From: a phage
Reading direction: 5' to 3' (one strand)
DNA length: 64,000 nt
Assembly (NCBI GenBank): GCA_014161675.1
Contig: GCA_014161675.1_4760.1
A program made the position numbers and the translations under genes. Of the stretch, positions 29,284-33,436 are shown in pieces. Under the pieces are notes generated by a model. That model had not been told where the DNA came from. It did no database searches and was given only the letters and a program-made list of their open reading frames with translations. Position 1 is the first letter of the stretch. Each line of letters begins with the position of its first letter.

Positions 29284-30870
29284 ATGAAAACTACCAAAGA
29301 ACTGATGGAAAAATGGTCCCCGCTGCTGGAGAACGAAAAACTGCCGGAAATCGCAACTGCGTCTAAGCAGAAACTGGTTGCTAAAATTCTGGAATCTCAG
29401 GAAGCGGATTTTGCTGTAGACCCGATCTATAAGGATGAAAAAGTTGTTGAAGCATTCGGTGGCTTTATCGCAGAAGCCGAAGTTGCTGGCGACCACGGTT
29501 ATGACGCATCTCAGATCGCGGCTGGTCAGACCACTGGTGCAATCACTAACGTAGGTCCGGCTGTTATCGGTATGGTTCGCCGTGCTATTCCTAACCTGAT
29601 CGCATTTGATATTTGTGGCGTTCAGCCGATGAGCACTCCGACTAGCCAGATCTTTGCAATCCGTTCTGTATACGGTGGCGATCCGCTGAAATCCGGTGCT
29701 CGCGAAGCATTCCATCCGATGTATGCACCTGATGCGTTCCATAGCTCTCTTGCTGCTAAAGAGGCAACTGTAGGTTCACCAACTGGTACTGCATTCGCTA
29801 AACTAACTCTCAATAATCAGATTGAAGCAGGTGATATTGTACACCACACCTTCGCAGAAACTGGTATTGCATATCTGCAAAACGTTACCTCAGATGCAGT
29901 AACCCCAGCCAAAGCTGGCAGCGAGTCAGAAGATGAAGTTGTCATGAAGCTGATGGAAGAAGGTAAACTGGCTGAAATCGCTTTCGGTATGGCTACTTCC
30001 ATTGCCGAAATTCAGGAAGGCTTTAACGGTTCCAGCAATAACCCGTGGGCTGAAATGTCAATGCGTATTGACAAACAGGTTGTTGAAGCGAAATCTCGCC
30101 AACTGAAAGCTCGTTATTCTATCGAAGTTGCGCAGGATCTGCGTGCTGTACACGGTATGGATGCTGACGCCGAACTGAATGCTATCCTGGCTAACGAAGT
30201 TCTGCTTGAAATCAACCGCGAAATCGTTGATGTGATCAACTTTACCGCTCAGGTTGGTAAGACTGGTATGACTCAGACCGTTGGTTCTAAAGCTGGTGTA
30301 TTTGACCTGCAAGACCCGATCGATACTCGCGGTGCTCGTTGGGCTGGTGAATCCTTCAAATCTCTGATCTACCAGATCGACAAAGAAGCTGCTGAAATCG
30401 CTCGTCAGACTGGTCGCGGTGCTGGTAACTTTGTTATCGCTTCCCGTAACGTTGTAAACATTCTGGCTTCTGCTGATCAGGGTATCAGTCTTGCTATGCA
30501 GGGTGCTGCAAAAGGTCTGAATACCGACACCACTAAAGCTGTTTTCGCTGGTGTTCTGGCTGGTAAGTACAAAGTATTCATCGACCAGTATGCTCGTCAG
30601 GACTACTTCACCGTAGGTTACAAAGGCGACAACGAAATGGATGCTGGTATCTACTATGCTCCGTATGTTGCTCTGACTCCGCTGCGTGCAACTGATCCGC
30701 AGTCTTTCCACCCGGTTCTGGGCTTCAAGACTCGCTACGGCATCGGTATTAACCCGTTTGCAGACAGCAAATCCCAGGCACCGTCCGCTCGCATCACCTC
30801 CGGTATGTTGAGCAAAGACAGCGTAGGTAAAAACGCATACTTCCGTCGTGTATGGGTTAAAGGTTGCTAA
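29284..30870 (+). CDS. 23: gp23 major capsid protein
   Basis: 528 aa; long collinear matches to T4 gp23 ('MVRRAIPNLIAFDICGVQPM', 'IDKQVVEAKSRQLKA', 'GIYYAPYVALTPLR', 'KNAYFRRVWVKG'). Confidence 0.95.
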   Translation: MKTTKELMEKWSPLLENEKLPEIATASKQKLVAKILESQEADFAVDPIYKDEKVVEAFGGFIAEAEVAGDHGYDASQIAAGQTTGAITNVGPAVIGMVRRAIPNLIAFDICGVQPMSTPTSQIFAIRSVYGGDPLKSGAREAFHPMYAPDAFHSSLAAKEATVGSPTGTAFAKLTLNNQIEAGDIVHHTFAETGIAYLQNVTSDAVTPAKAGSESEDEVVMKLMEEGKLAEIAFGMATSIAEIQEGFNGSSNNPWAEMSMRIDKQVVEAKSRQLKARYSIEVAQDLRAVHGMDADAELNAILANEVLLEINREIVDVINFTAQVGKTGMTQTVGSKAGVFDLQDPIDTRGARWAGESFKSLIYQIDKEAAEIARQTGRGAGNFVIASRNVVNILASADQGISLAMQGAAKGLNTDTTKAVFAGVLAGKYKVFIDQYARQDYFTVGYKGDNEMDAGIYYAPYVALTPLRATDPQSFHPVLGFKTRYGIGINPFADSKSQAPSARITSGMLSKDSVGKNAYFRRVWVKGC

Positions 30871-30952
30871 TATAAGCCATTCCTGAAAACTCCTGTCGGG
30901 TGCAATGCCCGACTTATCATAAACCTTATGACAGTGTAAAGTGTTAATTCCA

Positions 30953-30983
30953 AAGGGAAGACTCGAAAGGGTCTTCCCTTTTT
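30953..30983 (+). terminator. Strong Rho-independent terminator after gp23
   Basis: 10-bp stem AAGGGAAGAC/GTCTTCCCTT with 8-nt loop, then TTT; a weaker hairpin precedes it at about 30895-30913. Confidence 0.6.
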
Positions 30984-30999
30984 GCGTATTATAACCCGT

Positions 31000-31007
31000 T
31001 ATAAATA
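31000..31007 (+). promoter_or_regulatory. T4-type late promoter motif (TATAAATA)
   Basis: Exact TATAAATA just after the gp23 terminator; target unclear. Confidence 0.35.
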
Positions 31008-31369
31008 AGGTTGCAAGCCTATATTCTATTGGGAGCGAAAATAGATACACACAACAAAGACAGGAAGATGCAGAACATCGGTGGGTTGCGATCCTAAATC
31101 CGGTGGCTATGATATGTGATTGATTTTGATGCTGGATTTATTAAAACACAACAAACAATTCCACCAATTTTCGTAGTAACTGCATGGCAAAGGGACCAAT
31201 GAATGAAATGAGCGTTCATGTTGATATTGGGTCGGATCTATTTGATAGATATACAAGATCTGGTGTATGCCGACCTTGTTATGACATTCCATTGTGACGC
31301 TAGCGGTAATTTTTGGTTTTGGTACGCTGTTCCCCGAATTAACCCAAAATTCTCCATAAGGAGGAATGC

Positions 31370-31522
31370 ATGAGTAAGAAAGAAAACAGCTATGTTATGA
31401 CTCGTAAGGAATACAACGAATTGATGTTAGCATTAGCTTATGCAATTATTCGTTCTGATCATGCAATTAATCTGGTAAACAAAGTTAACCGTAGCGTTGA
31501 TAATGTTTCTAGGAAGAAGTAA
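31370..31522 (+). CDS. small hypothetical protein (50 aa)
   Basis: AAGGAGG at 31358-31364, 5-nt spacer, ATG 31370; below the ORF-track length cutoff. Confidence 0.4.
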   Translation: MSKKENSYVMTRKEYNELMLALAYAIIRSDHAINLVNKVNRSVDNVSRKK

Positions 31523-31561
31523 GTTTATTTTTGGAATCCTTTGGATTCCTTTTTCTTTTTG

Positions 31562-31569
31562 TATAAATA
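31562..31569 (+). promoter_or_regulatory. T4-type late promoter (TATAAATA) for gp24
   Basis: Exact TATAAATA about 38 nt before the gp24 ATG at 31607. Confidence 0.5.
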
Positions 31570-31606
31570 TGATATATCCATTAAGGCAAATACAGGATTC
31601 ATAAAC

Positions 31607-32848
31607 ATGACTCATATTTTTACTGAACTGTTGCGGGAATCTACTTCCTCAGTAGCTAACCAGACAGCGCGACCGCAACTATTATCATTAACTCGCGCGG
31701 TAAACAACCTGATTTTCTCTGATCTGGTAGCAATCCAGCCAACGGATCAACCAGTATCTGCATTGTACGGCCTACGTTATCTTAATCGTGATGGTCAGAT
31801 GACTTTCCGAACTGCTGCGACCTACGGTGGCGCGGCTGGTGATCGCACAGAGATTGAAGAGTTTTCAAAAGAAAAATCTTATGACGAAGGCGCACTGTTC
31901 AAATCAGACGATGTTGTATACGAAGTTGTGACCGCTGGTACAGTCGGTGAAGATGCCGAAACTCCAGAAGCTGCAATCTTTAAAGGCGTAATGACAAACA
32001 AAATTCGTTTCTATAGCGATTGTGCATCGGTAGAATACTTTGAAGATAAAAACACCGAAATTTCGTCTACCTCTATGCAGTTTGACAAGTGGCAAGTTAA
32101 TGTAGGTTCTCGTAAACTGAAAACCTCGTTCACGACCGAATTGATGCAGGATCTTGAGGCAAGCCAAATCAACTCTGAAAACTCTGTAATTGATCTTCTG
32201 GCTACTGTTGCTTCCGAAGAGATCAACAAAGATATTATTCAGAAGTTGATCACTGTATCATCTCGCTATAAAATTAAAGGGATCACCCCTGATGGCGTAC
32301 TTTCTCTCGTTAGCGTTCAGGATGCACCAACACAAGCGCGTGAACTTTACCGCTATGCTTGCGAAATGAGCAATCAAATGTTGCGGACTTCCTCCTTTGC
32401 TGGTACATACGTTTTGGCGTCTTCTCGCGTGGTTGGCCTCCTGCAATCTACCGGATGGATGGAAGAAACCGACAATGCTCTAAGCGAAGGTCGTCTACGT
32501 TGCGGTCTGGAAGTGTACGCAGACACGACGACACCTTTCGATTATATGCTCGTTGGTTGTAAGCACATGATCGGTGATATGGAGAGTGTAGGTTCTCTGT
32601 TCTACTCCCCATATACAGAAGCCGACGGCGCTGGCGCGTATAAGAGCGTAATTGACCCTAATAGCTTCCAGCATCATGTAGCTATTATGAATCGTTATTC
32701 ACTATCTGTCAACCCATACACATCAAAAGTTGATCAGGAAGAACACCAGGTCATCAAGGGTGACGATTGGGGTAAAATGGCTGGACGTTCAGAAATGTCC
32801 TACATTTTAGGAATCGAACTGCCACCGCTTGAGATTGACAACGCTTAA
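31607..32848 (+). CDS. 24: gp24 head vertex protein
   Basis: N-terminus 'MTHIFTELLRESTSS...' aligns with T4 gp24; ORF-track start 31541 is TTG, ATG 31607 preferred. Confidence 0.85.
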   Translation: MTHIFTELLRESTSSVANQTARPQLLSLTRAVNNLIFSDLVAIQPTDQPVSALYGLRYLNRDGQMTFRTAATYGGAAGDRTEIEEFSKEKSYDEGALFKSDDVVYEVVTAGTVGEDAETPEAAIFKGVMTNKIRFYSDCASVEYFEDKNTEISSTSMQFDKWQVNVGSRKLKTSFTTELMQDLEASQINSENSVIDLLATVASEEINKDIIQKLITVSSRYKIKGITPDGVLSLVSVQDAPTQARELYRYACEMSNQMLRTSSFAGTYVLASSRVVGLLQSTGWMEETDNALSEGRLRCGLEVYADTTTPFDYMLVGCKHMIGDMESVGSLFYSPYTEADGAGAYKSVIDPNSFQHHVAIMNRYSLSVNPYTSKVDQEEHQVIKGDDWGKMAGRSEMSYILGIELPPLEIDNA

Positions 32849-33436
32849 CTAAATATCTAACCAAGACAAGTCAGATCCGCCCAAGATTTTTTCGACGGCG
32901 GATCTATTTTCTTGATGATATAAGTTAAAACATGGTATCCCATGTCTACGGGCAACATAAACAGCAATTCGAGTTCCTCCCGAAACGATTCCATTAACTT
33001 CTTTCGCCCAAAATAACACACAATCTACAGGATCATCAAGTGTCTCACCTAAAACTTGAGCAACATTTCTAGAAAACAGATTTTGCATGTATAACGGTAT
33101 AGAACGAGGATTATCATAAACTTGTTCTAATTCATCCATCGCCAGATTTTTTTGTTCTAAGGTTTGCCATGCAATCACATCATGACCGTTATGCTTGTGG
33201 TCATAAAACTTCCAATTTGGAATGAAAATTTTTCTATAATCTGGATCGTAATATTTCATGAAAGCATTGTCCATACCGTAAGCCCCTCCAGAATGCGCTA
33301 CAACGCGATTTTCTGACAATACCCTCCCAATGGTACTAGCCATTATCAAAATGTCGCTAGGCGCTTTTCTAGAGCCTATTAAAGCACATCTACGAAGTGG
33401 TTTTACTCCAAATAGATCTTGTAACTGGTCAAACAT
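32849..33436 (-). CDS. Rossmann-like protein, possible SLOG/DprA(Smf)-like fold
   Basis: 'CALIGSRKAP...VVAHSGGAYGMDNAF' and 'SGGTRIAVYVARRHGIP' resemble DprA/SLOG motifs; GGAGGA RBS. Confidence 0.35.
   Translation of the reverse strand: MFDQLQDLFGVKPLRRCALIGSRKAPSDILIMASTIGRVLSENRVVAHSGGAYGMDNAFMKYYDPDYRKIFIPNWKFYDHKHNGHDVIAWQTLEQKNLAMDELEQVYDNPRSIPLYMQNLFSRNVAQVLGETLDDPVDCVLFWAKEVNGIVSGGTRIAVYVARRHGIPCFNLYHQENRSAVEKILGGSDLSWLDI

Follow-up and report, generated by a model that had tools for sequence, protein, structure and literature searches.

The gp23-gp24 spacer of a Krischvirus phage as the probable deletion scar of an accessory late-gene cassette with one surviving small gene

The variable, or hyperplastic, regions of T4-type phage genomes are subject to modular gene loss (Arbiol et al. 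2010, PMC2839356; Comeau et al. 2014, PMC4122927). Here, we examine a similar site, the spacer separating the major capsid protein gene gp23 from the capsid vertex protein gene gp24, together with the small gene of 50 amino acids (aa) which it contains, in a 64,000-nucleotide stretch of phage DNA (GenBank assembly GCA_014161675.1, contig GCA_014161675.1_4760.1), hereafter the window. As in hyperplastic regions, accessory genes placed between core genes and bounded by promoters and stem-loops come and go at this site among close relatives. In the published cases, however, early-promoter stem-loops (PeSLs) act as recombination sites, whereas the boundaries of this locus consist of predicted composites of a terminator and a late promoter, and the deletions are located inside genes, at short chance repeats. 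Terms that name this locus gave no match in a search of Arbiol et al. 2010 (PMC2839356).

In T4, the same genomic slot is occupied by segD. The original prediction made for this window had placed segD between genes 23 and 24, and this is correct, the gene being on the opposite strand. Both loci carry a non-essential insert but there is no sequence kinship between them: the T4 gene codes for an opposite-strand GIY-YIG endonuclease, whereas the genes considered here are co-oriented, fibre-like and late. Closer to the window, the 50-aa gene is the same gene, in the same position between gp23 and gp24, as RB49ORF162w, phi1p162 and EpJSE_00167, so that the open reading frame (ORF), first described as unannotated, does have public names; the public record gives it without any cassette context. 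Furthermore, two late promoters, Pl:94970 and Pl:95534, and two terminators, 94951-94974 and 95531-95547, were predicted for RB49 (Nolan et al. 2006, PMC1524935, supplementary tables), and these are the same elements as those described below. The individual elements (ORF, late promoters and terminators) are thus already on public record. The new part is the reconstruction of a stretch of about 360 bp as the wreck of a fibre-like cassette, for which we found no earlier description; neither the cassette nor the small protein is mentioned in the literature on the locus tags and on Krischvirus proteomics or in the Brandy49, G2248 and SSG23 papers.

The region shares 97.5-99.2% identity with the genomes of Krischvirus (RB49-like T4-type phages), to which the window can be assigned. 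The spacer extends over 30871-31606 (736 bp), exactly as first predicted, and has the following edges.

29284 to 30870, + strand: gp23, major capsid protein gene, a 528-aa ORF with the same annotation in RB49 and relatives; upstream edge of the spacer
31607 to 32848, + strand: gp24, capsid vertex protein gene, 413 aa from the ATG at 31607, matching RB49 gp24; downstream edge of the spacer

Probable remnants of a late-gene cassette in the spacer

The 59 GenBank Krischvirus records were sorted into four classes by a sensitive DNA search with the spacer alone, which was covered in full in 43 records, without about 100 bp in ten (JSE type), in its 3' half only in five and in its last third only in one (JK32). 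The short form, which we interpret as a scar, is present in 53 of the 59 records, including RB49, JSE and Phi1, as well as in the window. The six others, among them Brandy49, G2248, JK32, SSG23 and UPWr_E1, carry an intact cassette, and their gp23-gp24 interval reaches 3-5 kb. In this cassette, genes encoding products of 102, about 569 and about 310 aa follow one another in the same orientation and are succeeded by the 50-aa ORF. In JK32 (L014 5922-7766), a gene for an additional coiled-coil protein of 614 aa lies between the 310-aa and 50-aa genes, and L028 (7017-8987) has a 656-aa counterpart; these 614-656-aa proteins are almost wholly alanine-rich coiled coil. In Brandy, the ~569-aa gene is split into 250 and 327 aa (L004 484-2213). 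A split into 467 and 92 aa is also seen in one metagenomic lineage (L028 4306-6019); such splits could be homopolymer sequencing errors (Brandy was sequenced by IonTorrent) or the onset of a decay of the type seen in the window.

When the spacer of the window was compared with the Brandy/G2248 cassette by blastn, three ordered, colinear blocks were obtained, in support of the original suggestion that the spacer is a remnant. The first (30887-31053, 95.8% identity) starts behind gp23 and reaches the opening codons of the 102-aa gene. The second (31054-31216, 88% identity; Brandy L004 1661-1821) corresponds to an internal piece of the 569-aa gene. The third (31198-31700, 94.7% identity) takes in the 3'-terminal ~50 codons of the 310-aa gene and continues through the 50-aa gene to the start of gp24. 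From these blocks, the following elements can be proposed.

31031 to 31047, + strand: orphaned putative ribosome-binding site GGGAG and dead start codon of the 102-aa gene (ATA at 31045-31047, formerly ATG)
31054 to 31197, + strand: remnant B, an interior stretch of the ~569-aa collagen-motif putative fibre-like gene, frameshifted and corresponding to about codons 392-440 of G2248_162
31198 to 31359, + strand: remnant C, the 3'-terminal ~50 codons of the ~310-aa putative fibre gene together with its native TAA stop; two frameshifts in the window
31049 to 31058 and 31146 to 31155, + strand: two copies of the 10-nt direct repeat ACACAACAAA; the 97 bp between copies are lost in ten GenBank records, including JSE

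Each of these remains is recognizable in detail. At the site aligned with the dead start codon, Brandy, G2248 and JK32 read GGGAGCGAAAAT(T)AGATG. Remnant B gives tblastn matches in three reading frames, and remnant C matches the 3' end of Brandy gene 161 with 94.7% identity by blastn. The frame of remnant C is intact in JSE, phiS and E26; most phages have one frameshift and the window has two.

To compare the decay of the different parts, 14 scar-type phages were aligned. The two remnants have 41 variable positions over 304 bp, with a nucleotide diversity (pi) of 0.030, and 15 indel events of 1-97 bp, six in remnant B and nine in remnant C (pi 0.030 in each). The Shine-Dalgarno site and ORF of the 50-aa gene have three variable positions over 165 bp (pi 0.0026), with no indel inside the ORF, and the difference in variable sites between remnants and ORF is significant (Fisher p = 9e-6). 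The flanking parts of gp23 and gp24 show 5-6% variable sites, pi 0.016 and no indels. Judging from the ordered similarity to the interior of genes, the frameshifts, the lack of a start codon and the constraint relaxed relative to the neighbours, the remnants appear to be pseudogenes.

All 14 aligned phages have the same two junctions. The first is at a short repeat, CAC/AAAGAC, and the second at a 19-nt match that is imperfect but includes an exact AGCGTT core. Since the junctions are common to all these phages, the two large deletions seem to have arisen once, or once with subsequent spread by recombination.

The direction of change is indicated by the more distant relatives. When 1.84 billion cluster representatives were searched exhaustively with a HMMER profile of the 50-aa family, only four additional clusters came up, and the contigs, recovered for three of them, are all Krischvirus-like; therefore, there are no distant relatives from which a function of the 50-aa protein could be borrowed. 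Two divergent lineages and a closer metagenomic one carry an intact 102/~565/~309-aa cassette, with or without the 656-aa gene, then the small gene and gp24. In a third divergent lineage (a 2.3-kb contig), the small gene is again followed by gp24, and the gene upstream of it is truncated, with at least 271 aa. Because the most divergent lineages with contigs covering the region all have the intact cassette at the same locus, the cassette is probably the ancestral state.

Collectively, these data indicate that the spacer is very probably the deletion scar of an accessory late-gene cassette, of which the 50-aa gene is the only intact survivor. A scar is preferred to an empty insertion site because internal gene fragments cannot predate their genes. 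The ancestral order would have been gp23, two hairpins (H1 and H2), a late promoter, the 102-aa, ~569-aa and ~310-aa genes, sometimes a 614-656-aa gene, the 50-aa gene, a third hairpin (H3), a second late promoter and gp24. One deletion would have fused the 102-aa gene, at codon 3, with the 569-aa gene, at about codon 392, and the other would have fused the latter, at about codon 440, with the 310-aa gene, at about codon 257. The loss would amount to about 2.7 kb in the lineage that comprises RB49 and the window, and the leftover fragments would then have decayed neutrally through frameshifts, further small deletions and loss of the start codon. The original prediction of a lost mobile gene thus holds as far as lost genes are concerned; these would be three fibre-like late genes with no sign of mobility, rather than a homing endonuclease.

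The retained 50-aa gene and its predicted signals

The 50-aa ORF and its AAGGAGG are positioned as first predicted.

31358 to 31364, + strand: Shine-Dalgarno site AAGGAGG of the 50-aa gene, 5 nt before its ATG at 31370, overlapping the former stop of the 310-aa gene
31370 to 31522, + strand: 50-aa gene (RB49ORF162w, PHROG 16600), matching PHROG 16600 with E 1.5e-38 over residues 1-50 of 50

The protein begins MSKKENSYVMTRK; in GenBank its gene is named RB49ORF162w, phi1p162 or EpJSE_00167, and PHROG 16600 is a function-less family. All 59 GenBank Krischvirus records contain the gene at full length, and the protein of the window is 100% identical to that of RB49 and 41 other records. In the 14 aligned phages AAGGAGG is invariant, with a 1-nt indel of the spacing in two of them. 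In six comparisons with more distant alleles, the ratio of nonsynonymous to synonymous differences (pN/pS) is 0.16-0.46, with a Fisher p < 0.004 in each. For instance, comparison with JK32 gives a saturated pS of 0.95 for a pN of 0.24, and the divergent lineages overall give a pS of 0.74-0.95 and a pN of 0.24-0.39. The length of 49-50 aa is kept in every lineage with a complete gene; one cluster representative of 48 aa seems truncated. Across six lineages, the best-conserved stretch reads roughly T(R/K)KEY.ELMLA.AYAI(I/M)RSD. These data argue for a genuine protein-coding gene under purifying selection, which selection appears to have kept after the destruction of its upstream neighbours. An additional constraint at the nucleotide level was also considered, as the ORF is six times less diverse than gp23/gp24 in the 14-phage sample; it was not upheld across 58 records.

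In a 6-bp hairpin, UUCUCC-AUAA-GGAGGA (31351-31366), the Shine-Dalgarno site is paired with the final codons of what was once the 310-aa gene. This hairpin is absent in JK32, where another gene adjoins upstream, and it may be a leftover of translational coupling in the intact cassette.

The locus is framed by the following putative transcription signals and hairpins.

30895 to 30913, + strand: hairpin H1, 7-bp stem, -11.9 kcal/mol, z -3.9, no U-tract
30952 to 30985, + strand: hairpin H2 (30952-30981, 13 bp, -20.9 kcal/mol, z -5.5) and U-run, predicted terminator after gp23
31000 to 31007, + strand: predicted late promoter 1, exact motif TATAAATA, 37 nt upstream of the former start codon
31533 to 31560, + strand: hairpin H3 (31533-31549, 7 bp, -9.2 kcal/mol, z -4.4) and U-run, predicted terminator after the 50-aa gene
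31562 to 31569, + strand: predicted late promoter 2 (gp24), exact motif TATAAATA, 37 nt upstream of the gp24 ATG

The two exact promoter boxes, both already noticed in the original prediction, fit the published late-promoter consensus, with a box at -13 to -6 (PMC1524935). Over the entire window the motif occurs eight times for 5.6 expected, without enrichment; the expectation per strand in 736 bp is about 0.03, and the spacer holds two copies. Both boxes are exact in all seven divergent lineages compared. By motif and position, they are predicted to be T4-type late promoters, dependent on gp55/gp33/gp45. The order of signals is common to all lineages compared: H2, the late-promoter box, a cassette ending in the 50-aa gene, H3, the second box and the gp24 leader.

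On the minus strand, a sigma-70-like site (30988-31016; TTGCAA, 17 nt, TATAAT; 10/12 matches) lies antisense to late promoter 1 and is directed into the 3' end of gp23. Its -10 element is not kept in JK32, and the number of such sites in the region (five for 3.5 expected) is not above chance.

The two hairpins behind gp23 had both been proposed to be terminators, and this applies to one of them. H2, a G+C-rich stem-loop followed by a U-run, is predicted to be a canonical intrinsic terminator. It is annotated as a terminator in TB34 and Makalu_001, and in JK32, L020, L025 and L028 its stem sequences are altered with pairing intact. H1, lacking a U-tract, does not qualify as a canonical terminator. 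Its stem is identical in JK32, L028 and UPWr_E1, carries pairing-preserving changes in L020 (GTTGGGC...GCTCAAC) and is absent from L025; it could act at the 3' end of the gp23 message, either by stabilizing it or as the mark of a processing site. Downstream of the 50-aa ORF, the third hairpin, H3, not described originally, is followed by UUUUUCUUUUU and is also predicted to be an intrinsic terminator. It is annotated in TB34, and its stems vary yet pair in G2248, JK32, L025, L024 and L028. The stems read GGAATCC/GGATTCC in the window, GGGGAATCC/GGATTCCCC in JK32 and GGGGAGATCC/GGGGTCTCCC in L025.

The promoter at 31000, putatively that of the fibre-like cassette in origin, would now be the sole evident promoter of the 50-aa gene. 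Since no terminator-like site was found between 31008 and 31369, this orphaned promoter would give a transcript of about 540 nt, made up of a non-functional leader of about 360 nt and the 50-aa gene and ending at H3. The 50-aa gene would be translated from its strong Shine-Dalgarno site, and gp24 would be served by its own late promoter just 3' of H3. A small late protein, one of the products first proposed for this spacer, is supported by the purifying selection and by the position of the gene between a conserved late promoter and a terminator, both predicted from sequence.

Could the ORF nevertheless be untranslated, its conservation reflecting DNA- or RNA-level signals for gp24 expression? 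In the RB49 clade, the ORF and the 84 bp downstream are indeed both highly conserved (pi 0.003-0.006). However, the synonymous sites are saturated in divergent lineages while pN stays far lower, the length, start and stop are kept, and the strong Shine-Dalgarno site is at optimal spacing. In addition, a predicted terminator and gp24's own promoter lie between the ORF and gp24. We therefore regard an untranslated ORF as very unlikely.

As to gp24 itself, some GenBank records, as in SSG23 (L016 3908-5254), place its start at an upstream in-frame TTG (window 31541), which makes the gene overlap the 50-aa gene, terminator H3 and the gp24 late promoter; ATG 31607 is the start in RB49 and most other records. 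On the minus strand, a 195-aa gene, RB49ORF164c (32849-33436), converges on the end of gp24. According to the annotation of phage SSG23, it encodes a DprA-like DNA recombination-mediator protein, odd company for head genes.

The lost fibre-like proteins

The products of the intact cassette share features with fibre proteins. The 569-aa protein contains a short collagen-like GXY run (GEQGIPGEKGENGRG) and has weak matches to PHROG tail-fibre families; in tblastn searches against phages, its matches were confined to unannotated Vibrio phage proteins and were weak and N-terminal. For the 50-aa and cassette proteins together, the only yield of PDB sequence and profile searches was an Lpp-type alanine zipper in the 310-aa protein, Lpp being a trimeric coiled coil. 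The AlphaFold2 (AF2) model of the 310-aa protein comprises a long helix (residues 33-117) and a confident beta-sandwich (135-295), and its Foldseek matches are predicted viral tail-fibre and receptor-binding proteins. The best non-helical structural matches are fibre tips of phages and of R-type pyocins (PDB 6cxb, 6cu2, 4mtm, 6r5w, 2fsd). As predicted from the model, the 310-aa protein would thus resemble the receptor-binding fibres of phages and R-type pyocins in combining a trimer-type alanine-zipper coiled coil with a beta-sandwich tip. Scans of the 50-aa and cassette proteins with Pfam, NCBIfam and PADLOC gave only coiled-coil noise; with the PADLOC defence and counter-defence profiles, nothing was significant and this noise was at E ~1e-3 to 8e-3. 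Most likely, and with moderate confidence, the lost cassette proteins formed accessory receptor-binding fibres.

By eye, the ~60 N-terminal residues of the translated 310-aa and 614-aa proteins look alike. A shared N-terminal domain is frequent among fibres with the same docking site, and these two proteins may be alternatives for one such site.

For the 50-aa protein, the AF2 model is a single long alpha-helix (residues 12-49, pLDDT 87). T4 gp57A is a small helical fibre-assembly helper. By analogy only, the 50-aa protein is comparable with it: very small, predicted to be all-helical, late and encoded beside trimeric-fibre genes. The analogy is limited in that no sequence or family match was found and in that the 50-aa gene is kept after the neighbouring fibre genes were lost. 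Because the gene travels with coiled-coil fibre-like genes, sits in the head-gene block and outlives the loss of those genes, it is possible to guess, tentatively and against the odds, that the product is a small late morphogenesis factor, a partner for coiled coils with a role not confined to the lost fibres. Speculatively, it could be an assembly helper or a minor virion component whose function is independent of these fibres.

Among four RB49-like phages, Brandy49 is reported to be the one with the widest host range and to have an O-antigen-independent route past the O antigen, attributed to gp38 (PMC9569957). It would be conceivable that the cassette is a second fibre set explaining this host range, and that the 50-aa helix was never lost owing to a fibre-independent job in head or virion assembly; we consider this combined proposal doubtful.

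Alternative readings and significance

The fragments left in the spacer could have acquired a new life, the small ORFs of the remnants being functional genes born from the wreck. Short ORFs of 45-63 aa are indeed annotated here as hypothetical proteins in JSE, Phi1, MIZ6, Makalu, TB34 and E26, including the 52-aa type of JSE_166 and phi1p161.1, and there is a corresponding family, PHROG 20809 (45 aa). In the window, a 51-aa ORF (31218-31373) even overlaps the start of the 50-aa gene as ATGA. No plus-strand ORF exceeds 51 aa within 31008-31369, the stretch of about 360 bp originally, and rightly, said to have no convincing long ORF. However, frame, start and length vary among near-identical phages, and variable sites and indels are densest precisely here. 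Fragments of the PHROG 20809 type are located at window 31198-31359, L007 1732-1890 and L008 908-1045. Since frame and start change from phage to phage, PHROG 20809 and the annotated short ORFs appear to be debris from the C-terminal end of the 310-aa gene, so that the family would be an annotation artefact. New genes in the remnants are thus very improbable.

In a reverse history, the window would represent the ancestral empty site, into which the cassette was recently inserted in Brandy, G2248 and JK32. This would account for the prevalence of the short form, carried by most cultured isolates (53 of the 59 records). Such a history is difficult to reconcile with the content of this form, which holds ordered, frameshifted interior fragments of two cassette genes and a dead start behind an intact Shine-Dalgarno site. 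Ordered interior fragments can only derive from full-length genes, so such genes must be the source. Together with the intact cassettes of the most divergent lineages spanning the region, this leaves a recent insertion highly improbable.

The stretch 31008-31369 might, on the other hand, be selected for itself as a structured non-coding RNA or a regulatory leader; an RNA was also among the products first proposed. It is located downstream of a conserved late promoter, so that it is probably transcribed, and the small hairpin at 31351-31366 pairs with the Shine-Dalgarno site. Yet the best match to Rfam 15 has an E-value of 0.88 and scores 21 bits, where the gathering score is 72, and the minimum free energy of the 362-nt leader is no better than that of shuffled sequences (z = +1.6). 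Furthermore, the 15 indel events among near-identical phages include deletions of 97, 22, 14, 13 and 12 bp, and the Shine-Dalgarno hairpin is missing in JK32. Over 30500-32000, no tRNA or tmRNA gene was found by ARAGORN, and the Rfam scan gave nothing usable. The chance that this stretch is a functional RNA is accordingly minimal. Finally, a remnant of a segD-like homing endonuclease, suggested by the GIY-YIG-family gene on the minus strand between T4 genes 23 and 24, can be practically dismissed, as neither SegD by tblastn nor the T4 spacer DNA by blastn finds a match in the spacer or in any intact cassette, and no nuclease domain was found in Pfam, NCBIfam and PADLOC scans of the cassette proteins.

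Several points temper the interpretation of the spacer as a deletion scar with a surviving gene, as well as the roles proposed for the products. Promoter use, termination and translation are deduced from consensus and conservation. The 50-aa protein matches no family in Pfam or NCBIfam and no annotated PHROG family, and a single helix provides no usable fold match. Over 58 records, identity in the ORF block is about that of the flanking capsid gene segments, with no signal of constraint beyond protein coding. The persistence of the 50-aa gene after the loss of the fibre genes argues against a dedicated fibre chaperone, and a place among the head genes is as compatible with head fibres as with tail fibres.

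Gene loss of this kind is an ordinary event in T4-type genomes, and the deletion-scar interpretation changes no general principle. For annotation, it gives an odd long spacer a definite history, in which the short ORFs would be debris and the 50-aa gene real; this gene offers a clean case of a tiny ORFan held by selection after the decay of its neighbours. It also draws attention to an uncharacterized set of three or four fibre-like genes, carried by some Krischvirus phages between gp23 and gp24. Since phages of this genus are under development for therapy, extra host-recognition fibres, if true, would bear on host range, and the cassette-bearing and cassette-less phages constitute a natural contrast, a ready-made experiment.

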